In this document: piece after piece, positions 4,108 through 22,256 of the stretch
Layout of the letters: each line of letters opens with the position of its first letter
Numbering within the stretch: the first letter of the stretch is position 1
From: a virus
Taxonomy: Duplodnaviria; Caudoviricetes
Virus record (IMG/VR): IMGVR_UViG_3300031939_000004
Coordinates: 1 to 53,786 of that record
Reading direction: 5' to 3' (one strand)
DNA length: 53,786 nt
Made by a program: the position numbers and the translations under genes
The notes under the pieces: model-generated
Seen by the model: the letters and a program-made list of their open reading frames with translations, nothing else
What the model was told of the DNA's origin: nothing
The model's database searches: none

Positions 4108-4784
4108 CAGTCCATGCCGTGGACGGGGCACGGCGAGTCGCCGGTGCAGCCCTGGCCGTGCAGGGCGTCCCACCAGCGGGCGGCCCAGCGGGCGTCACCG
4201 AGGGCGGTGTGCCGGTCCTCGGGTCGGGCGTCGGGGACCGCGGCGAGGTGGGCGAGCGCCTCGCTGTTCATCGGCAGCCCCGGCTGTAGGCCGCGGGCGA
4301 GCGCGTGCCCGTAGGCCATGGACTTCAGGTCGTGGATGGCGTAGTGCCAAGGCTGCTCGGCCAGCCCGTGCCGGCGGAACATGGCCGACAGGACCGCCGC
4401 GTCGAAGTGGGTCCCGACCCCGACCAGGGTCGCGCCCTGCAGCTTGGTGTGCACCGCGCGGGCGATGGCGAACTCGGGCCCGTGGCCGGCGAACACGCCC
4501 TCGTCGTCGTACAGCCGGCCGCAGTATTCGCCGGACAGCCCCATCCGGCCGCGGGTCTCCCAGCCACCGATGCGCAGCGCGTCGGGCTCGGTGCCGGGCG
4601 GCAGGCTACTCGGGGTGTAGTCCACGATCCACAGGTGCTCGTGGACCACCTGGTCGGGGTCCTTGACGCCGTTGCGGACCTGGGCGGGGTGCGGGCCGCG
4701 GTAGACGGCGGCGATCTCCCAGGGACGGGCGAGGTGGCTCAGGCCGGTCGTCTCGGTGTCGACGAACACCAGGGGCGGGGTCAT
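4107..4784 (-). CDS. DnaQ/DEDDh 3'-5' exonuclease
   Basis: VFVDTETTGL, HFD and HTALGDA motifs; GAGGAG RBS. Confidence 0.85.
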   Translation of the reverse strand: MTPPLVFVDTETTGLSHLARPWEIAAVYRGPHPAQVRNGVKDPDQVVHEHLWIVDYTPSSLPPGTEPDALRIGGWETRGRMGLSGEYCGRLYDDEGVFAGHGPEFAIARAVHTKLQGATLVGVGTHFDAAVLSAMFRRHGLAEQPWHYAIHDLKSMAYGHALARGLQPGLPMNSEALAHLAAVPDARPEDRHTALGDARWAARWWDALHGQGCTGDSPCPVHGMD

Positions 4785-5215
4785 ACGGGGCTCCTCTTGC
4801 CGGTCCTGGCGTCGGCAGCCAAGATCCATGCGTGCCAGTAAAGCACGGGCATCTCCAGGGCCGAGGCGATCTGGAGTTCGAGCGTGGCGCCGCGGGACTG
4901 GCGGATTCCGCTGGGGGTGACCGTGGCGACGGCGTTGCAGGTCAGCAGCCCGCCGATGGCGCCGCGGACGGCGCTGTACCAGTCGCACTGGGGCTGCTGG
5001 GCGATCGGGGGCTCGGCCGGCGAGATCACCCGGTAGCCACGGCCACGCAAAGAGGCAGCAGCCTGGTGGAACTCGGCGAAGTTGAGCCCGGGGTAGCCCG
5101 ACATCGGGCCGCACAGATAGATCTGCCAGGCGTTCGGGCCGCGGGAACCGCCGAACACTCGGGCCCGGTCGCGCTCCATCACGCGCTCAGCGGCGCGCCG
5201 TTCGATCTGGTCCAT
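4781..5215 (-). CDS. DUF4406 / nucleoside deoxyribosyltransferase-like protein
   Basis: IYLCGPMSG..LNF..F, VISPAE and SRGATLE motifs. Confidence 0.75.
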   Translation of the reverse strand: MDQIERRAAERVMERDRARVFGGSRGPNAWQIYLCGPMSGYPGLNFAEFHQAAASLRGRGYRVISPAEPPIAQQPQCDWYSAVRGAIGGLLTCNAVATVTPSGIRQSRGATLELQIASALEMPVLYWHAWILAADARTGKRSPV

Positions 5216-5224
5216 CGTGCTACG

Positions 5225-5395
5225 CTAGCAGGGCAGCTCCAGCTGACCCGGTACCGGAACCGGGACCCGAAGCCGCTCCAGCTCGACCAGCGCCTCCACC
5301 AGCTCCGGCACGTGTTGGTACAGCGCCAGCACGACAGCACGAAGCTGCGCCGGGTTCAGCCGGCGCAGCTCGCGCTTGCACTCCTGCGGGGTCAC
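5225..5395 (-). CDS. Small hypothetical protein
   Basis: GTGA-coupled ORF filling an operon gap. Confidence 0.45.
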   Translation of the reverse strand: MTPQECKRELRRLNPAQLRAVVLALYQHVPELVEALVELERLRVPVPVPGQLELPC

Positions 5396-5730
5396 GCGAC
5401 CAGCCGGCGCCGGTTGCCCAGCCGCTCGCGGATGGCCGCGTTCCGCCTGGGCGCGTCGAACCCCCACACCCGGCCGGCGCGGATCACGTCGACGGTGCGG
5501 TACCGGTTGCCGCCGGGTGGGTGGCTCGCCTCCCGGCCGCACAGATCGTAGACCGGGCAGGAGTCGCAGACCTGCACCGCCTGGGCCCACCGAGCCAGCC
5601 GGGCCTCGCGGCCGGCCGCGTCGTGCGGGTGCTGCATCTCGCCCGGCAGGTCGACGTCCCAGGTCCGAGGCGGCAGCGTCGGGTGGTCGTGGCAGGCCGC
5701 CCGACGCTGCCAGCTGGAGTCAGTAGCCAC
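5392..5730 (-). CDS. WhiB-family transcription factor
   Basis: W..RAAC ... VCDSCPV..LC (four Cys) and a GRVWG turn. Confidence 0.78.
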   Translation of the reverse strand: MATDSSWQRRAACHDHPTLPPRTWDVDLPGEMQHPHDAAGREARLARWAQAVQVCDSCPVYDLCGREASHPPGGNRYRTVDVIRAGRVWGFDAPRRNAAIRERLGNRRRLVA

Positions 5731-6223
5731 TGGACCCGAAGCCTCGCGTGCCGCGCTCGTCGGGGGACACCAACACGTCGGTGCTCTCGGATCGGACCCG
5801 GACGATCGGGTGCAGGACCAGCTGCGCCAGCCGCTCACCCACAGCCACATCCACAGGTGTGGACGACAGGTTCCACACCCCGGCGTAGATCGGCCCGATG
5901 TACCCGTTGTCGATCACCGCCTCGTTGACCAGCAGCCCGCGGCGCCGCAGGGTCGAGCTGCGGCCGGTGATCCGGCCCCAGTAACCCGTCGGCAGCCGCA
6001 GCCGCAGCCCCGACTCGACGTCGACGAACTGGCCCGGCTCGATCCGGACCGCCTCGCTGACGAACAGGTCGAGCCCGGCGTCGCCGGTATGCACCTGCAT
6101 CGGCATCTGCGCATCGGGGTCGTCCAGGGCAACCTGTAGCACCGGCAGGTGCGGCGGGACGTCGATGGTCGTCCACGAGCCCTGGGTACGCAGCTGAACG
6201 CGTGGTTGGTCCTGCTCGCTCAT
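5720..6223 (-). CDS. dut: Trimeric dUTPase
   Basis: All five motifs: AGLDL, GRSS, VIDNGYIG, ERLAQL, RGTRGFGSSG. Confidence 0.92.
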   Translation of the reverse strand: MSEQDQPRVQLRTQGSWTTIDVPPHLPVLQVALDDPDAQMPMQVHTGDAGLDLFVSEAVRIEPGQFVDVESGLRLRLPTGYWGRITGRSSTLRRRGLLVNEAVIDNGYIGPIYAGVWNLSSTPVDVAVGERLAQLVLHPIVRVRSESTDVLVSPDERGTRGFGSSGY

Positions 6224-6465
6224 CGCCGCCCCGTCCAATCCCGGGGGTCGACCTGCGGGTTCACCCGCAGCGCGGCCCGCCGGCAGTCCTCGAAGTTGGT
6301 GTAGGGCTCGCCGCCGGTCGCGACGACCCGCGTGTTCGGTGCCAGCCGGCGCCAGATGTAGCGCTGCGCTCGGCTCAGCCCGCGCCGGTGGGCCCGGCGC
6401 TTGACCACCTGGACGATGTCGCCGTCGCTGGTCCCCCAGCTGGCGGCGATCTCCTCGCTCCTCAC
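6220..6465 (-). CDS. Hypothetical protein
   Basis: Coupled by 4-nt overlaps at both ends. Confidence 0.55.
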   Translation of the reverse strand: MRSEEIAASWGTSDGDIVQVVKRRAHRRGLSRAQRYIWRRLAPNTRVVATGGEPYTNFEDCRRAALRVNPQVDPRDWTGRR

Positions 6466-6785
6466 GCGGCGTCGCAGATCGGAGCACCGCACTGCGGCCA
6501 CTCGCCCCAGCGCTCGATCAGGTCCAGGGCCCGTTCGGCGTGCGCCAGCTTGGCCATGTCGACCACCTCTACCGGCGGCCCGGACTTCTGGCCGGCGGGG
6601 AACGCGCGCAGCCGGTAGGCGCCCGACGCGTAGCCGACTGTCATGGTCACCTGGGTCTCGGGGTGGGTCCACCAGTCGACCCCGCGCTTGCGGAAGCCGT
6701 GGCCCTCCAGCAGCCCGACGATCCGGGCGCCCAGCTCGACCGGGTCCCGGCCGTCAGACAGCTTGTTCGATCTCACTTCAGACAC
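6462..6785 (-). CDS. Hypothetical protein
   Basis: GAGAGGGA RBS; in-operon ORF. Confidence 0.6.
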   Translation of the reverse strand: MSEVRSNKLSDGRDPVELGARIVGLLEGHGFRKRGVDWWTHPETQVTMTVGYASGAYRLRAFPAGQKSGPPVEVVDMAKLAHAERALDLIERWGEWPQCGAPICDAA

Positions 6786-6823: not shown

Positions 6824-7369
6824 TCAGACGCCCGGCCAGGCACCGACCTCGCGGACTCGCTGGGCCATCTTGGTGTACACGGCGATGTCGTGCCAGGTGT
6901 CGTCGGACGGGCGCCGGCCCTCCTTGATCGCGCCCATCACCCGCCCGACCTTGCCGGCGACGTAGAACGCGATCCCCAGCTCGGCCAGGGCGCCCTCGTC
7001 GGCCTTCTGCTCGACCGACCAGCCGGCGACGTCGGCGATCTGCCGGCCGAGGTCGATCAGGTCGGTGGAGCTGTACTCGACGGCCTTCGGCACGACCCCC
7101 GTGATCTCCTCGTCCACCCGGCGGTACCACCAGCGCTCTAGCTCGGCCGCCATCAGGCTGTGCTGCGCCTCCCGGGCGGCCTCCGCATCCACGAGAGCCT
7201 GGCTGCGGGCCGACAGGCCGGCCAGGGCGTCCGAGGCGCTCGGAGGGGCTCCCGTGGCAGCGACGGGCCCATGGAAGCGCGGGTGCGCCGGGCAGTGATC
7301 GGACGAGCAGGCGTGCAGCCCGTCGTGATTGTGCGCCAGGCGGGTGGTGCCGGGCGGCAGTGGGGTCAT
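6824..7369 (-). CDS. Putative all-alpha NTP pyrophosphatase-like protein (DUF1599/Nmad-like)
   Basis: K..EY ... K..R ... DDTWHDIAVY pattern; ATGA-coupled to purZ0. Confidence 0.55.
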   Translation of the reverse strand: MTPLPPGTTRLAHNHDGLHACSSDHCPAHPRFHGPVAATGAPPSASDALAGLSARSQALVDAEAAREAQHSLMAAELERWWYRRVDEEITGVVPKAVEYSSTDLIDLGRQIADVAGWSVEQKADEGALAELGIAFYVAGKVGRVMGAIKEGRRPSDDTWHDIAVYTKMAQRVREVGAWPGV

Positions 7370-8436
7370 CGGGCCTCTCCTCGCAGGACGATCTGGTCGG
7401 CAACGCGCGGGCCGGTCCCGACGACGGTGACCTCGGCCCCGGTGTCGCGCTCGACCCGCTCGACGAAGTCCCAGCCGGCCGAGGTGATCTTGTCGGCGCC
7501 GGTGGCGTCGGCGTCCACCGCGCCGGGCAGCTGGTCCAGCATCGACAGGTGGATGGTAGCGCCCGGGTTCGCCCGGATCGCCCGTTCGGCGAGTTCGCCG
7601 TCCCACAGGCCGACCCGGCGTGGCTTCTTGGTGACGGTGGTCAGCTCGACCGGCAGGCCCAGCTCCTCCCAGCTGGTCTCGTCCTTCATCGGGCCGGAGT
7701 TGCCGGCGACCCGGATCGGGTAGACCCGCATGCAGGCCAGGATGGAGATGTCCGAGACGGCCCAGGGCGAGACCCCAGCCATGGCGGCGAAGTCGACGGC
7801 CCGGCAGTCGGACGAGGTGCACTGCGGGTAGAAGCCGGCGTGCAGGCCGAGCCCATAGCCCTGGGTGCCCTCGATCACGACCACCTCGTGCGGGTTGGCG
7901 GCGGCGAACTGCAGCTCGCTGGAAGTGTCGTGGGTCGGCACCGGGAACAGGTCACGCTCGACCGCGGACAGCTTGTGCCACCACTGCCCGTAGGTCCGGG
8001 CGGAGCGCAGCAGCCGGGCCGCACGGGCAGCGCCGATGCCCTTACCGGTGGAGCCGATCGCACCGACCAGGCCGTGCTCGTGCTCGACGGCCTTGTGCTC
8101 GTCCTCCAGGACGGTGGCCTGGTCGTCGATACGCAGCTCGACCCGGACGTCGGCCGCGCGCAGCTGCTCCAGCTCGCTGCGCAGCACCGGCGGGTCGATC
8201 TCGCTGCCGGCGGAGATCACGCAGGTGACGCTGGGGTGGTCGGCGACGGCTCCGACCGGGACGGTACGTAGCGGCCAGGCTCGGCCGGTCTTGTCGTAGG
8301 CGGTGTGGCCGGCGTTGGGGCCGGCGACTCGGACGTTCCAGACGTGGCGGTCTTGGGTCCGCTCGATGACGCCCGCGGTTGCGGCGCCCTTCGCTTCGGA
8401 TCCGTACTGACCACCGACGACGATCACTAGGCTCAT
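7366..8436 (-). CDS. purZ: PurZ0-type N6-succino-2-amino-dAMP synthetase (PurA homolog)
   Basis: GGQYGSEAKG (Ser in place of the PurA catalytic Asp13), RVAGPNAGH, IEGTQG, YPQCTS, TTVTKKPRRVG; SMLD keeps the GTP-specifying Asp. Confidence 0.88.
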   Translation of the reverse strand: MSLVIVVGGQYGSEAKGAATAGVIERTQDRHVWNVRVAGPNAGHTAYDKTGRAWPLRTVPVGAVADHPSVTCVISAGSEIDPPVLRSELEQLRAADVRVELRIDDQATVLEDEHKAVEHEHGLVGAIGSTGKGIGAARAARLLRSARTYGQWWHKLSAVERDLFPVPTHDTSSELQFAAANPHEVVVIEGTQGYGLGLHAGFYPQCTSSDCRAVDFAAMAGVSPWAVSDISILACMRVYPIRVAGNSGPMKDETSWEELGLPVELTTVTKKPRRVGLWDGELAERAIRANPGATIHLSMLDQLPGAVDADATGADKITSAGWDFVERVERDTGAEVTVVGTGPRVADQIVLRGEAR

Positions 8437-8443
8437 GCCTGCT

Positions 8444-8453
8444 AGCCAAGCAC
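8444..8453 (-). promoter_or_regulatory. Leaderless extended -10 element of purZ0 (GTGC-TTGGCT)
   Basis: TTGGCT lies 7 nt before the ATG at 8436; no clear -35. Confidence 0.6.
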
Positions 8454-8478
8454 GCGCGCCCCGGGCTCCGGACACGGA

Positions 8479-16881: not shown

Positions 16882-17162
16882 AGGTCGATCCGGCCGATCG
16901 TGGTGCGCAGGCGGTAGACCAGCGCGTCGGCGTGCTGGATCTCGGTGCGCAGTCGGTTGGCGACCACGCTGGCCGGCGCCGGCTCGGAGACGGCGGCCGA
17001 GACCGGCGGGGCGGGCTGGGGCTGCTCGGGCCGCAGCACCGGCGAGATGTGGTCCAGCAGGTACTGGATCGTGGTGTCCATCTCGTCGATCGTGGCGGCC
17101 AACCGATCCAGCTCGCCGGGGACGGCGGGCGTGATCTCGGGGTTGGGCGTGGGCTGGGTCAT
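16878..17162 (-). CDS. Hypothetical coiled-coil protein
   Basis: ATGA overlap with the polymerase stop codon. Confidence 0.6.
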   Translation of the reverse strand: MTQPTPNPEITPAVPGELDRLAATIDEMDTTIQYLLDHISPVLRPEQPQPAPPVSAAVSEPAPASVVANRLRTEIQHADALVYRLRTTIGRIDL

Positions 17163-19141
17163 TCGAGCCACCTTCCATGGTCGATCTTCATTGGACAGCC
17201 GAAGTAGGCGCTTGCCATCTCAGCACCCCGCTGCGCCAGTTGCGGGACGAGCACGTCCCCGACCTCGGTCGGGAGATACAGCACTGCGGAGTCGTGCACG
17301 GTCAGGACCAGCCCGCCGGCCGGGTGCCACTCGCGGGTCTGCAGCTCGACGTCGTTCAGCCACTCGGTCACGAACTCGGCCAGCGAGCCCTGGACGATCC
17401 GGTTCCAGCCGGATCTCGCGTAGTCCCGGGGGCCGAGGTAGGTGTAGCGGCCACTCACCAGCCGCAGCCGGCGCTGATACTCGAACTCGCGCATCCGGCC
17501 GTAGTACATGTCGCCGAACTCGGGGTAGGTGTCGCGCCATGCGTAGACGGCACGCTTGCACTCCCCCAGGGGCCACTCCAACTCGGCCTGCTTACGGAGG
17601 GTGCCCTGGAACGTCTCGGCGCCGATCCAGAAGATCGACCCGAAGGTCAGCCGCTTGGCGATGTCGCGCATCCGCTTCCACTCGACCGGCCCGACGTCGT
17701 CCTTGGTCGTCTTAAACACGCTCTCGGTGGTCACCGAGTGCAGGTCGGCGCCCTCGGCCAGCATGGTGTTCATCCGCTCGCAGCCGGCGAGGTGGGAGGC
17801 GACCCGCAGCTCGGCCTGGCTCAGGTCCAGGTTGTAGGCGGCCCAGCCGTCGATCGCGCCGGGCCCGTCGAAGAACATCAGGCGCGGGTGGTCGACGCCC
17901 TCGATCCCGCTGCCCTTGTCCATCTTCGGCACGGCCTGGAGTTGTACCCTGCCAACTGCCATCCGGCCGGACTTGACGTGCGCCTGCTTGTATTCGGTGC
18001 GCAGCCGGCCGTCCGGCCCGTTCAGCGCGGGGTAGCCCTCGTACCACATGCTCAGCGCGGTCTGCATCTTGCGATACTGGCCCCACTCGACGGCGTACGG
18101 CACGCCGGTCTTGGCCCAGAACGTGGCCTCGGTCTTGTCGACCGGCCGCTCCTCGATCCACTCGTCGCCCTTGCGGATCTTGCGCGGCTTGCAGCCCTGC
18201 CGGTCGTAGAACCAGTGCGCCGCGGTGTCGACGGTGGGTTCGACGCCCCAGGCGCGGCGGAGCTTCTCGCGCAGCGGCGCCATCTGCGCCCGGATCTTCT
18301 CGGCTTCGGCCAGCGACCGCTTGGCGTGGTAGGGCACCCCGCGCTGCTCGATCCGGTACAGGGTGCGCAGGGTCCGGTGGCGCAGGGCGAGCCCGGCCAC
18401 CTCCACCGGGGACATCTCCGCGCCGCGCAGGACGCCATCGGGTGACTCGTGACCATAGACCCGGCTGCGCTGGTGCAGCCACAGTCGGAGCGTTTGGTCG
18501 GCGTCGCGTCGGGCGTACGGCTCCATGGTCCCCCAGGGGACGAGGTCGTAGCGCTTCCGGCCGTCCAGGACCTTCTTCAGCGCGTTCTGCTCGGCGCGCT
18601 CGTCCTCGCCCCACAGCCGCTGGGCGGTGGCTTTCAGCGCGACCAGCTTGGTCGGGTCCAGCTCCTTGGCGACCAACATGGTGTCCCAGGCCAGCGCGGG
18701 CTCCAGGTCGATCCCGCCTCCGCCGGTGCCGTCGCCGAACGAGCGGACCCCGGCGCGCAGCATGGTCAGGTCGAATTTCGCGTTGTGCATGACCAGCCGG
18801 CGCCGGCTCAGCCAGCCGGTCAGCTCGTCCCATGCCTGCCGGTCCAGGTTGGGGTCCTCGAACAGGTCGCCGAGGGCGAACAGCGAGGTCTGCTCCTGGC
18901 CGGCTGCCTTGCGGTCCATCTTGGCGGGGCGCTCGCCCTTGTCCTCCCAGCGCTCCTGGTCGAACGGGAAGGCGCGGGTAATCTGCCGGCCTCGGCCGCC
19001 GTGCTCGCCCTGCTCGTAGTAGCTGATCGAGACGACCGCGACTCGGGCACCGTCGTCGGGGTGCAGCCCGCTGGTCTCGGTGTCGCAGGCGACCAGGCCC
19101 CACACCTGCTCGGGCAGGCCGAGGATCGGGGTCTTGTCCAT
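17159..19141 (-). CDS. Family A DNA polymerase with 3'-5' exonuclease (DpoZ candidate)
   Basis: Exo motifs DTETSG, HNAKFD, YARRD; motif A DLSQAELR, motif B RDIAKRLTFGSIFW, motif C VHDS; leaderless (TAGGAT at 19149-19154). Confidence 0.92.
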   Translation of the reverse strand: MDKTPILGLPEQVWGLVACDTETSGLHPDDGARVAVVSISYYEQGEHGGRGRQITRAFPFDQERWEDKGERPAKMDRKAAGQEQTSLFALGDLFEDPNLDRQAWDELTGWLSRRRLVMHNAKFDLTMLRAGVRSFGDGTGGGGIDLEPALAWDTMLVAKELDPTKLVALKATAQRLWGEDERAEQNALKKVLDGRKRYDLVPWGTMEPYARRDADQTLRLWLHQRSRVYGHESPDGVLRGAEMSPVEVAGLALRHRTLRTLYRIEQRGVPYHAKRSLAEAEKIRAQMAPLREKLRRAWGVEPTVDTAAHWFYDRQGCKPRKIRKGDEWIEERPVDKTEATFWAKTGVPYAVEWGQYRKMQTALSMWYEGYPALNGPDGRLRTEYKQAHVKSGRMAVGRVQLQAVPKMDKGSGIEGVDHPRLMFFDGPGAIDGWAAYNLDLSQAELRVASHLAGCERMNTMLAEGADLHSVTTESVFKTTKDDVGPVEWKRMRDIAKRLTFGSIFWIGAETFQGTLRKQAELEWPLGECKRAVYAWRDTYPEFGDMYYGRMREFEYQRRLRLVSGRYTYLGPRDYARSGWNRIVQGSLAEFVTEWLNDVELQTREWHPAGGLVLTVHDSAVLYLPTEVGDVLVPQLAQRGAEMASAYFGCPMKIDHGRWLE

Positions 19142-19191
19142 GCCGCCCATCCTACCGGCGCCCCTTGCCGTCGAGGCACGTCGAGGCGCCG

Positions 19192-19524
19192 GGGGTCAGG
19201 GGGTCAGTCCTCCGACAGTGTCCCTCGTGATGCATGTGCACGCGTCGCGCGCGTACGTCGCGTACCCGCGTACGTGTAAAGAACCCCAATCTCATATACT
19301 GACCCCCTGTCCCCGGTGCTCTTCTCACGCGGAACGACCGGCGTGTCGTGGGGGTCACTGGCCACTGACCCCCGCACTGACCCCCCACTGACCCCTAGCC
19401 CCTCTGTTGCGAACCGGGCAAGGGCATCTGGCCACTGACCCCACTGACCCCCTGACCCCCTGGGCCGCCGGGGTCAGTGGGGGTCAATGGGGGGTCAGTG
19501 GGTGCCTGACCCCCGCTGACCCCC
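19192..19524. repeat. Cluster of about 15 TGACCCC repeats in both orientations; putative replication origin
   Basis: Copies counted by eye; they flank a locally AT-rich patch (about 19275-19300) between polymerase and primase. Confidence 0.7.
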
Positions 19525-22256
19525 TGCAGCAGCCTGGCCGAGACCTCCACCGACAGCGGCCGGTAGGTGCGCTTGTTCGCCTTGTCCCCCGAGACGGGCC
19601 GGCGCACCCCGGGCTCGTCGGACAGCGTGTCCAGCTGGGCCCGCAGCGCCTCCGCGGTCTCGTTCCGGCCGGCGGCGCCCGGGGTCTTTAGCCGCAGGTG
19701 CTCCAGCCAGGCCGCGGTCAGCTCGGCGTTGACCCACAGGCGCTCGCCGCGCAGCAGGAACGGCGTGATCGGCGCCGGGAACCGCGAGTCCGAGCGGGTC
19801 GGCTCGGCGGGTGGCTCGATCCGGTCCAGCAGCCGCGGGAGGACCGACAGCGTGAGTGCGTTCTCGTCGCCGTAATCGGCCTGCTCATCGACCCACCTCG
19901 CCACGACATCCACGTGGTGCGGGTCGCCGGTGAGCTTGGCCAGCAGCCTCGCGCCGGCCTGCAACACCGCCATGGCGTCGCCCATCCGACCACCCCCGCT
20001 GCCGCGCAGCTGGCGGATCTCCTCGGTCAGCGCGTCGGCGTGCCGCAGCGCCATCCGGACGACCGTGCCGGCCAGCACGGTCAGGTCCCGGTCGTACCGG
20101 GCGGACAGCTCCACGATGTCGGCCCACTGCAGCCGGTCGGCCGGCGCGCCCTTACGCTGGCTGCGCCGCTTGGTCGGGCTGGCCACCTTCAGCCGGATCG
20201 ACCGGTCGATCAGCGCCTTCTCCCGGGTCAGCCCCAGGTTCTCCCCGGAGATCACGAACGGCGCGACCAGCCGGGTGGTCACGTTCTGGGTGCGGTCCTC
20301 GGCTTTCTTGGTCATCGAGCCCTCGGAGGTCGCCGCGCGCATCACCTCCTCCAGGTGCCCGATGGTGTCGGCGTCGTCCAGCCAGACGATCCCGTTCCGG
20401 TTGGCGCTCAGCGCGTCGCGGAACGCCGGCTTGGTGTTCACCGACTGGCCGCCCTTGTTGCCGGCGAGCTGGATCAGCAGCCCGAACATGCCGGTGGTCT
20501 TGCCGGACTCGGACGGCGCCTCGATCGCCATGAACGGGAACGCCCCGGTCGCCTGCATCACCGCGTGCTTCACCAGCGCGGCGGCCCACCAGGCGCCGAA
20601 CACCGAGGCGGTCTGCTCGTGGTGGAAGGTCAGCAGCTCGCGCAGCACCGCCCTGGCCTCGGCCTCGTCCCGGTCCACCCCGTATCGGAACTGGACCAGC
20701 TCGGCCGCAGCCGGCGAGGGCCGGACCCCCGGGCCGGTGTACTTACCGTCGACGGTGATCACGCCATCGGGGGTGACGAACCCGCCGATCCGGTGCTTGC
20801 CGGTGGGCTGCCCGTCTTGGCCGATCTCGGGCACCCGGATGTCGGCGTGCCAGCCGAGGTGCGGGACCACCTGGAAGGCCGGCGGGCGCTGGTTGTCCAG
20901 GTAGCGCTGCACCCGGGCGCCGCGGTCCATCCGGTCCACCGCCGGCTTGCCCTCCTCGATGGTGGCGCCCTGCGACGCCAGCCAGGCGTTCAGCTTCCGG
21001 GTGTCGGCGAGGGTCCTCGCGTCGACCTGCAGCTGCCGCGGTGGGAGCTTGTCCTCCACCCCGCGCTTCAGGTACATGCGCACGTCGTAGGTCCTCGCGT
21101 CGTCCTCCTGGAGCACCCCGACCGCCTCCAGGTCGAAGTCGGCCCACTCGAACCAGGCCGGCTGACGGGTGTCGCCCGACCCCACCCAGCCGCGGTACAG
21201 CAGCGTCCCCAGCCGCACCCCGCCCGGACCGCGGCCGGGGGCCAGGTAGCCGGCCCGCCCGTCGATCGTGGCCAGTTCCATCTCGTCCTGCGCCGGCTCG
21301 TCCAGCGCGGTGCGCTCCTGCGCCTCGGCCTGCTTGCGCCGCTCGGCCTTCCAGATGGAGCCGGCGACCTTGTCCACCTCGGCCGCCGGCAACGGCGGGG
21401 TGAGCTTCGCCGCCTGCTCGCGCACCTGCACCAGGTAGGTGTCCCGGTGGTTCTCCCGGGCCGCCAGCTGGCCCGCCACCCGGGCCAGCCAGTCGTTCCG
21501 GCCGCCCTCGCCGTCTGGTGGGTTCTGCATCAGCTCGGCCAGGGTCGATCGGCCGGTCGGGCGCTCGCCCTTCTCACTGGTCGCCCCGACCGACTTCAGG
21601 TCGGACAGCAGCCAGGCCGGGGGCTCGGCCAGCTGCTCGGTCGGCTCGATGATCCACTCGCGGCCGGGCAGCCCGCCGGCCACCACGAACCCGCCGTCGC
21701 CGCGCAGGTCCACCCCGGAGTCCTTGCCGTATAGCGCCGATCGGTTGCCGATCCGGTAGTTCGGGTCGGCGTCGGCGCCGGTCCCCTCCGCGGGGTACGC
21801 GTAGTAGTTGTGCAGCCCACCCGAGCTGGTCCGCGCCACCGCCGGCTCGCCCCACCCGCCCTCGTGTTCCCACTGGGCCGCCTTCGCCCGCTGGGTGTCC
21901 CCGCCCCGGGCGTTCGGGTGCGCCTCGCTGGCGACGTCGAAATCGACCACCAGCAGCCCGGAGGGCCGGCCGGTCGGGATCCCCGGCACCGCCAGCGGGA
22001 ACTGCCCACCCCGGCCGAACCAGCCGCGGATCACGTCCGGGTCCCGGGTGGCGACCGTCTGCCAGCCCTTCACCGCCGGCACCTTCGTGGCCGAGTTCAC
22101 CGGGAACACCGGCCAGCCGAACGAGGCGCAGGTCAGCGCCACCGCCAGCGCGTGGTCCGTGACCCCCGCGATCCCGGTCTGCTGCTCGGTCGGCGCGCCC
22201 TGCTCCGGGCGCTCGCGGGCGGGCTCGGGTGCCCCTCCGCGGTTGATCTTCGGCAT
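19395..22256 (-). CDS. Bifunctional primase-polymerase fused to PriCT and a P-loop domain
   Basis: GWPVFP, LLVVDFD, TSSGGLHNYY, GVDLRGDGGFVV, GGRND and APSESGKTT motifs. Confidence 0.88.
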   Translation of the reverse strand: MPKINRGGAPEPARERPEQGAPTEQQTGIAGVTDHALAVALTCASFGWPVFPVNSATKVPAVKGWQTVATRDPDVIRGWFGRGGQFPLAVPGIPTGRPSGLLVVDFDVASEAHPNARGGDTQRAKAAQWEHEGGWGEPAVARTSSGGLHNYYAYPAEGTGADADPNYRIGNRSALYGKDSGVDLRGDGGFVVAGGLPGREWIIEPTEQLAEPPAWLLSDLKSVGATSEKGERPTGRSTLAELMQNPPDGEGGRNDWLARVAGQLAARENHRDTYLVQVREQAAKLTPPLPAAEVDKVAGSIWKAERRKQAEAQERTALDEPAQDEMELATIDGRAGYLAPGRGPGGVRLGTLLYRGWVGSGDTRQPAWFEWADFDLEAVGVLQEDDARTYDVRMYLKRGVEDKLPPRQLQVDARTLADTRKLNAWLASQGATIEEGKPAVDRMDRGARVQRYLDNQRPPAFQVVPHLGWHADIRVPEIGQDGQPTGKHRIGGFVTPDGVITVDGKYTGPGVRPSPAAAELVQFRYGVDRDEAEARAVLRELLTFHHEQTASVFGAWWAAALVKHAVMQATGAFPFMAIEAPSESGKTTGMFGLLIQLAGNKGGQSVNTKPAFRDALSANRNGIVWLDDADTIGHLEEVMRAATSEGSMTKKAEDRTQNVTTRLVAPFVISGENLGLTREKALIDRSIRLKVASPTKRRSQRKGAPADRLQWADIVELSARYDRDLTVLAGTVVRMALRHADALTEEIRQLRGSGGGRMGDAMAVLQAGARLLAKLTGDPHHVDVVARWVDEQADYGDENALTLSVLPRLLDRIEPPAEPTRSDSRFPAPITPFLLRGERLWVNAELTAAWLEHLRLKTPGAAGRNETAEALRAQLDTLSDEPGVRRPVSGDKANKRTYRPLSVEVSARLLQGVSGGQAPTDPPLTPTDPGGPGGQGVSGVSGQMPLPGSQQRG

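Follow-up and report, generated by a model that had tools for sequence, protein, structure and literature searches.

Which function is encoded by the gene that directly follows purZ0 in phages that use the PurZ0 route to 2-aminoadenine (Z) genomes? The components listed for such genomes are PurZ or PurZ0, DatZ, MazZ/DUF550, DUF5664, DutZ, DmtZ, and DpoZ, and the gene after purZ0 in the majority of PurZ0 phages, here called X, has neither a name nor a family model; it was found in 65 of the best 80 loci and in each of the 31 actinophage records outside Arthrobacter (see below). We approached the question through IMG/VR virus record IMGVR_UViG_3300031939_000004, a complete viral record (CheckV, 100% complete) of 53,786 bases and 72% G+C, the whole of which is referred to as the window. 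X occupies positions 6824 to 7369 on the minus strand, with its stop codon at 6824 to 6826, and encodes the 181-residue protein P0001. Our best explanation, which we regard as evenly poised, is that X is an all-alpha deoxynucleoside triphosphate (dNTP) diphosphohydrolase that would feed deoxyguanosine monophosphate (dGMP) to PurZ0, remove deoxyadenosine triphosphate (dATP), or do both.

X is a standard component of the purZ0 module

The minus strand carries the majority of genes in the window, purZ0 and X among them. Plus-strand positions 7366 to 7369 read tcat, which gives ATGA on the minus strand, where the ATG of X and the TGA of purZ0, the gene upstream (7366 to 8475, minus strand), overlap. 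This overlap, already noted in the original prediction for this locus and confirmed here from the sequence, is read as translational coupling. A purine-rich, Shine-Dalgarno-like sequence, GAGGAGAGG, lies inside the coding end of purZ0 at 7374 to 7382 on the minus strand, with a spacing of 4 nucleotides (nt) to the ATG of X. The two genes have the same compositional signature, the G+C fractions at codon positions 1, 2, and 3 being 0.73, 0.52, and 0.93 in X and 0.72, 0.51, and 0.92 in purZ0. A longer, GTG-started open reading frame (ORF) at 6824 to 7822 was rejected because it overlaps purZ0 out of frame and the homologs start near the ATG at 7369.

The same arrangement recurs in related loci. 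In IMG/VR, purZ0 was found directly upstream of X on the same strand in 68/71 X loci; the contig ends truncate two of the other loci (L049 and L065), and in the third (L051) purZ0 is on the opposite strand. DutZ is encoded downstream of X in 69/71 loci, the exceptions (L046 and L076) having ∼0.4 kb or no sequence past X. The overlap between X and purZ0 is usually 4 nt (ATGA or GTGA) or 1 nt (TAATG or TGATG). Among cultured phages, X is present in 31 GenBank records, from phages of Microbacterium (18), Gordonia (6), Streptomyces (5), Micrococcus (1), and Curtobacterium (1). These per-genus counts equal those of PurZ-bearing records; the identity of the records was compared for Archimedes, Hiyaa, Goodman, and Ghobes, and in all four X, which is gp51 in Ghobes, stands directly after purZ0, with a dUTPase gene downstream. 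The X gene of the window is likewise a member of the purZ0 module (purZ0, slot gene, dutZ). X is a standard third component of this module, whose order is purZ0, X, zero to two small genes, and dutZ.

At L051 (positions 342 to 2853), the sole detected purZ0 lies ∼1.3 kb downstream of X, beyond dutZ and on the opposite strand. X sits 341 bases from the start of that contig, where a rearrangement and a second copy are indistinguishable.

X and DUF5664 alternate after purZ0

The genes that follow purZ0 were surveyed in the best 80 of the 382 IMG/VR loci matched by a PurZ0 alignment. On the strand of purZ0, the gene that came next was X in 65 of these 80 loci and a DUF5664 gene in the remaining 15, with no locus carrying both and none carrying neither. 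DutZ was found within the flank in 76 of the 80. In phage Wayne, gp51, encoded directly after purZ0, is a DUF5664 protein (PF18909, 3.5e-32). This protein, DUF5664-1, was assayed as a dATP/dGTP/dUTP diphosphohydrolase, with dATP favored about tenfold relative to dGTP (PMC12884076, Table 1). The alternation of unrelated proteins in one slot of a conserved operon is a classic sign of functional equivalence.

The history of the slot was traced on a quick PurZ0 tree of 74 rows, in which the midpoint root serves for drawing only and for which the careful search is unfinished. Fourteen DUF5664-type loci formed one clade (Shimodaira-Hasegawa-like approximate likelihood ratio test, SH-aLRT, 100) amid diverse X-type lineages. 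The PurZ0 of L082, a locus with DUF5664 at L082 positions 5050 to 5673 (PF18909, 7.5e-19), fell beside an X-type locus, outside the Arthrobacter-phage clade. The tree requires two changes of slot type, one of which is forced by well-supported branches. This suggests up to two swaps between X and DUF5664 at the slot, with L082 hinting at a second, independent one.

Under the diphosphohydrolase reading, X would be a Mg-dependent enzyme that converts a dNTP to the corresponding deoxynucleoside monophosphate (dNMP) and pyrophosphate. From dGTP it would produce dGMP, on which PurZ0 acts, and/or from dATP it would produce dAMP, leaving dZTP intact, and would thereby be the equivalent of DUF5664-1 in the PurZ0 phages of Arthrobacter and of MazZ/DUF550 in PurZ phages. 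Translational coupling would keep its production in step with that of PurZ0. MazZ/DUF550 (PF04447) converts (d)GTP to (d)GMP for PurZ and is encoded beside purZ (PMC8342488; PMC12884076); like the MazG-type pyrophosphatases, it is an all-helical bundle, as X is predicted to be, and its job is the one proposed for X.

The closest parallel in gene context is DUF5664-1 (PF18909, dGTP_diPhyd_N), which occupies the identical slot, immediately behind purZ0 on its strand, with dutZ farther downstream. The two proteins are of similar size, and each has a conserved C-terminal domain of ∼100 residues behind a variable, Cys/His-bearing N-terminal tail. They differ in distribution, since DUF5664 is widespread in ordinary-DNA phages (833 phage records) whereas X was found only beside purZ0, and in that an activity has been measured for DUF5664-1 whereas the role of X is predicted.

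The dATPase role is not vacant

The original prediction cast X as a gene filling a dATPase or dGMP-supply role in a genome with no HD-domain DatZ or DUF550. Hidden Markov model (HMM) searches of the 53,786-base record agreed on the missing families: PF01966, PF04447, PF03819, PF12643, PF01503, PF18909, and PF07659 gave no matches at E ≤ 10, and the positive control, PF00692, was found. A DatZ-type HD domain was matched neither in X (Pfam) nor in the genome (PF01966). The MazG gene that the prediction assumed to be in the genome was not found in the window.

The premise that the pathway lacks a dATPase nevertheless fails. A DutZ-type dUTPase-family gene is located at 5720 to 6211 on the minus strand (163 amino acids [aa]; PF00692, 9.4e-23). 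It is the sole dUTPase match in the genome, and its product is 44% identical to the assayed DutZ of phage Ghobes, gp55 (E = 1e-36); an NDT-superfamily gene is also present (described below). DutZ of PurZ0 phages hydrolyzes dATP and dGTP, dutZ was reported in 98/98 PurZ0 genomes surveyed, and for the Ghobes enzyme the apparent kcat is highest with dATP (PMC12884076, Table 1 for the last). The DutZ ortholog of the window probably provides dATP/dGTP diphosphatase activity. DutZ belongs to the same gene module as X and has possibly overlapping substrates, but its all-beta, trimeric dUTPase fold (PF00692) is unrelated to X, and the two co-occur here.

In its strict form, the prediction would make X the dATP-removing enzyme of the phage, replacing a missing DatZ or DUF550. 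The absence of HD, DUF550, MazG, and DUF5664 matches from the genome is compatible with this, as is the preference of the slot-sharing Wayne enzyme for dATP. However, the phage need not rely on X as its only dATPase because a DutZ ortholog is encoded two genes downstream, and the kinetics of Ghobes DutZ on dATP indicate that the role is already taken. We therefore consider the strict form highly improbable. The part of the proposed role that stands is dNTP cleavage, the best-supported activity given the slot shared with DUF5664; the part that does not is the need for X to fill a vacancy.

A phage family with a conserved C-terminal core

P0001 matched no Pfam family at E ≤ 1 and no PHROG, and neither Pfam (2025 copy) nor PHROGs v4 contains the X family. 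HMMER, run exhaustively against 1.84 billion cluster representatives, recovered 902 related clusters at E ≤ 0.001. The family is essentially phage-only; among 185,579 prokaryote species genomes, one X locus was found, on a 57-kb contig of a metagenome-assembled genome (MAG) with the phage-like order purZ0-X-dutZ.

The conserved unit of the family is the C-terminal ∼105 residues. In P0001, alignments place this core at residues 77 to 179 (6833 to 7141, minus strand), a stretch of four helices that carries every invariant residue. Conservation was measured on 148 sequences, each representing one 50%-identity cluster. Residues W80, W81, K95, Y99, G108, Y136, K140, R143, D161, Y165, and W178 were invariant, and E88, E98, D103, E130, and D157 were conserved in at least 90% of the representatives. 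The motifs that first drew attention to X (K..EY, K..R, and DDTWHDIAVY) are present as K95-A-V-E98-Y99, K140-V-G-R143, and D156-D-T-W-H-D161-I-A-V-Y165 and are among the most conserved residues, well beyond chance expectation. The charged or aromatic positions in the invariant and near-invariant set are E88, K95, E98, Y99, D103, E130, Y136, K140, R143, D157, D161, and Y165, a chemistry that would be more readily expected of a site binding a metal-triphosphate and a base than of a simple scaffold.

This conservation bears on the alternative that X is a noncatalytic, stoichiometric partner or regulator of PurZ0 that, for example, tunes its choice of donor or substrate, stabilizes it, or channels dGMP. 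Translational coupling would then exist because X is the partner of PurZ0, and such a role accords with the stop/start overlap seen here and in most related loci, with the strict adjacency in 68/71 X loci, and with a slot that is filled in the best 80 of the 382 purZ0 loci. Yet the PurZ0 enzymes of DUF5664-carrying phages would require an unrelated partner, the invariant Lys/Arg/Asp/Glu/Tyr set appears to resemble a ligand site, and no in-frame X-purZ0 fusion occurred in the 71 IMG/VR loci. We judge a partner role rather unlikely. A complex prediction for PurZ0 and X residues 45 to 181, run without controls, scored 0.00, where the mark is 0.32, and is neutral on whether the two proteins bind.

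In contrast to the core, the N-terminal extensions of family members range from none to several hundred residues and often contain Cys/His motifs of differing kinds. In P0001, residues 13 to 29 (7283 to 7333, minus strand) form a His/Cys-rich stretch, H-x-H ... C-x4-C-P, that is a possible zinc-binding knuckle, modeled at low confidence (predicted local distance difference test [pLDDT], 53 to 60). The H.H....C....CP pattern is kept in the closest homologs; some members of the family have other Cys/His motifs or none, and forms of 106 to 134 aa without N-terminal motifs are common in IMG/VR. At least three different Cys/His patterns occur among X and many of its relatives. A Pfam scan of the 148 representatives matched 97 families, of which 25 were listed (single-member matches weaker than E = 0.049 being unlisted), and the zinc-finger matches were weak only, with zf-Di19 in 3/148 members (best E, 1.8e-4). 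Ten long family members compared with Pfam showed no informative fusion, just weak zinc-finger or spurious matches. In the 419-aa gp68 of Streptomyces phage Hiyaa (L002, positions 4164 to 5423), the X core forms the C terminus, and the first ∼300 residues are Cys/His-rich and match no Pfam family. A gene for a PurB-like lyase follows a few genes after gp68 in Hiyaa.

The tails raise the further alternative of a zinc-finger nucleic acid-binding or replisome factor, which would, for example, recognize Z-DNA or bring nucleotide enzymes to the replication fork, with the core as a binding module. The occurrence of several types of N-terminal Cys/His motif in many members, the weak zf-Di19 matches, and the joining of the core to the ∼300-aa Cys/His-rich region of Hiyaa gp68 are in keeping with such a factor. 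However, the motifs are variable and are missing from the 106- to 134-aa forms, which marks them as accessory, and the conserved part is the Nmad1-like core described below. The assayed DUF5664-1 enzymes, moreover, have a comparable H..C...C.C tail, so that a tail of this kind is no argument against an enzyme. A zinc-finger factor thus seems improbable to us. Zinc-knuckle-like tails are found on both slot fillers, the H..C...C.C of DUF5664-1 in Arthrobacter phages being attached to an unrelated catalytic domain.

One annotated family, phrog_474 (“phosphofructokinase”), was weakly matched by 15 of the 40 members of the X alignment (best E, 1.3e-4). As an identity for X, it was set aside as an uninformative label, seemingly unrelated to any kinase fold, which may be a misannotation propagated through phage records.

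Predicted fold and remote homology of the core

An AlphaFold2 model of X was built with a 40-sequence alignment (mean pLDDT, 83). Block-mean pLDDT values were 81 to 98 over residues 61 to 170, and helices were placed at residues 54 to 98, 101 to 114, 125 to 149, and 156 to 175. The core is confidently predicted to be a four-helix, all-alpha domain of ∼105 residues.

The best profile-profile match to X was Nmad1/DUF1599. A DUF1599 alignment of 102 sequences was seeded from gp74 of Clostridium phage phiCTP1 (PF07659, 2.1e-11) and its homologs; five large phage records, the MAG genome, and 401 Actinomycetota genomes yielded no seed sequences. Comparison of the X core (148 sequences) with this alignment by hhalign gave a score of 31.5 (P = 1.4e-4; probability, 53%), versus scores of ≤14.5 (P ≥ 0.13) for 1 reversed and 30 column-shuffled controls. 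The alignment pairs E130, G132, K140, R143, D157-T158, D161, Y165, and M168 of X with E-Y-G, DKLNR, and DT..DLANY..M, which are conserved in DUF1599. With the X-specific segment (residues ∼103 to 126) removed, K95..E98-Y99 also fell in register with KNaDYG of DUF1599; the hhalign probability without the insert was 57 to 82% across the 20 windows tried, of which the best value is optimistic. The elements in register are thus K..[DE]Y, E.G, K..R, and DT..D...Y..M. Against the Pfam HMM of DUF1599 (PF07659), X remained below threshold; the genome gave no matches, and the 25 families listed in the scan of the 148 members do not include DUF1599.

Structural searches pointed in the same direction. 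Beyond the X family itself, a BFVD search returned an Nmad-domain protein at rank 8 (E = 0.029; probability, 0.90), followed by phiCTP1 gp74-like and DUF6378 proteins, and in the ESM Atlas the template modeling (TM) score to DUF1599 clusters was 0.60 to 0.70, the best being 0.69 to 0.70 over 96 residues. In the predicted structures, DUF1599 is the nearest neighbor outside the X family and appears to have the same helix order, including the short second helix. The two differ in that the first and third helices of X are separated by an extra ∼20 residues, and in that the L..WW start and the W.P end conserved in X are absent from DUF1599. In Asgard viruses, DUF1599 genes have been reported beside genes of nucleotide metabolism, namely those for dUTPase and ThyX (bioRxiv 10.1101/2021.07.29.453957). 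We conclude that X is likely a distant relative of Nmad1/DUF1599 through a weak but specific relationship, as had been anticipated from its DUF1599/Nmad-like, all-alpha appearance, and from this weak homology we infer an Nmad1-like, all-alpha nucleotide-binding fold.

The path from this fold to a pyrophosphatase is less direct. A profile search of the PDB with the X alignment returned one designed repeat protein (E = 8.6), and PDB searches with the DUF1599 profile and with a single DUF5664 protein (P0209) found no solved relative. Foldseek against the PDB, VIA over 48,161 chains, and VIA re-ranking produced no X match above helical-protein noise; in the re-ranking, DCTPP1, RS21-C6, iMazG, and AF1178 aligned over the whole X core (residues 72 to 176) without rising above that noise. 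An ESM Atlas query with a DUF5664 protein returned DUF5664 clusters only. DUF1599 weakly resembles AF_0060 and MazG-type all-alpha proteins, and AF_0060 is placed in the all-alpha nucleoside triphosphate pyrophosphatase superfamily in SCOP. A chain leading from X through Nmad1 to AF_0060/MazG-like proteins is plausible, with each of its links weak.

Several points weigh against X being a dNTP diphosphohydrolase. The catalytic activity and the substrates proposed for X are read from its gene context. MazG enzymes have a canonical EExxE...ExxD metal motif, and a motif of this type is not evident in X. X had no MazG, MazG-like, PRA-PH, DUF550, DUF5664, or DUF1599 match in Pfam, and these families were likewise not among the 25 listed for the 148 members. 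By hhalign, no sequence similarity was detectable between X and the assayed DUF5664 (probability, 0.07%) or between DUF1599 and DUF5664 (probability, 0.5%). Finally, DutZ covers both dATP and dGTP, which would make a further diphosphohydrolase partly redundant and therefore leaves room for a different role of X.

One such role is that of an Nmad1-type nucleotide enzyme or binder at a step other than dNTP to dNMP. Its target could be 2-aminodeoxyadenylosuccinate, dZMP, dZDP, or another nucleotide to be removed or recycled, and its function would not be redundant with that of DutZ. This alternative draws on the retention of X in 65 of the best 80 loci even though DutZ already handles dATP and dGTP (PMC12884076), and on a remote homology that points to DUF1599 and to no assayed pyrophosphatase. 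The alternation of X with DUF5664, an assayed dNTP diphosphohydrolase, points instead to the same job, and no positive evidence was found for another reaction. We regard it as unlikely without being far-fetched. A tentative, broader possibility, to which we give a minority chance, is that X represents an unrecognized, near-universal third activity of the PurZ0 route, either new Nmad1-type chemistry on a nucleotide of the Z pathway or an obligatory subunit of PurZ0.

X in relation to the described Z pathway

The X family is not mentioned in the main text of PMC12884076, a 2026 study that characterized neighbors of X in phage Ghobes, whose Figure 1A and supplementary tables may show it unnamed. 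Term searches did not find it in an association study (bioRxiv 10.1101/2025.10.22.683976) or in PMC8342488 either, and an earlier passing mention is possible. X may be a new family that fills an established role in the pathway, with a real chance of a function absent from the pathway map.

Should X prove to be a dNTP diphosphohydrolase, a third fold would have been recruited, independently, to the same step; this would be another case of the functional convergence described in PMC12884076 and would offer a useful component for the engineered synthesis of Z-DNA. Should it have another role, the present drawing of the PurZ0 pathway is incomplete. In either case, a relative of Nmad1/DUF1599 would gain a function for the first time, and a third activity would provide the first biochemical handle on this large superfamily, which is found beside nucleotide-modifying enzymes in many viruses.

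Other genes in the window

The purZ0 gene (2-aminoadenylosuccinate synthetase) has a longest ORF of 369 aa, starting with GTG at 8475; the ATG at 8436 (MSLVIVVGGQYGSEAKG) is the start that fits the homologs. The product matches Adenylsucc_synt (PF00709, 2.7e-39) and phrog_1211 (“2-aminooxy adenylosuccinate synthetase,” 1.9e-87) and is 46 to 49% identical to the PurZ0 proteins of Arthrobacter phages, including Wayne. It contains the motif GGQYGSEAKG, in which Ser replaces the Asp of PurA, a substitution described as a mark of PurZ (PMC12884076).

Two small ORFs lie between X and dutZ, a gene of 107 aa at 6462 to 6785 (minus strand; G+C at the third codon position, 0.90) and a putative coding ORF of 81 aa at 6220 to 6465 (minus strand). 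Neither product had a family match in the Pfam scan. The interval between X and dutZ in related loci likewise holds 0.4 to 1.3 kb of coding sequence without an assignment.

The NDT-superfamily gene (DUF4406) is located at 4781 to 5215 on the minus strand and encodes 144 aa (PF14359, 1.7e-14; PF05014, 2e-4). It may be an analog of DmtZ, its product having marginal similarity only to Ghobes DmtZ, gp53 (E = 0.006 over 31 aa). In metagenomic proteins, DUF5664 is frequently joined to DUF4406 and in some cases to an NT5C nucleotidase domain.

Farther along the minus strand, the window encodes a family A DNA polymerase with a 3′-5′ exonuclease domain, a candidate DpoZ-1, at 17159 to 19150 and a primase-polymerase of 953 aa at 19395 to 22256. 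This layout of polymerase and primase-polymerase matches the replication layout of phages Wayne and Goodman.

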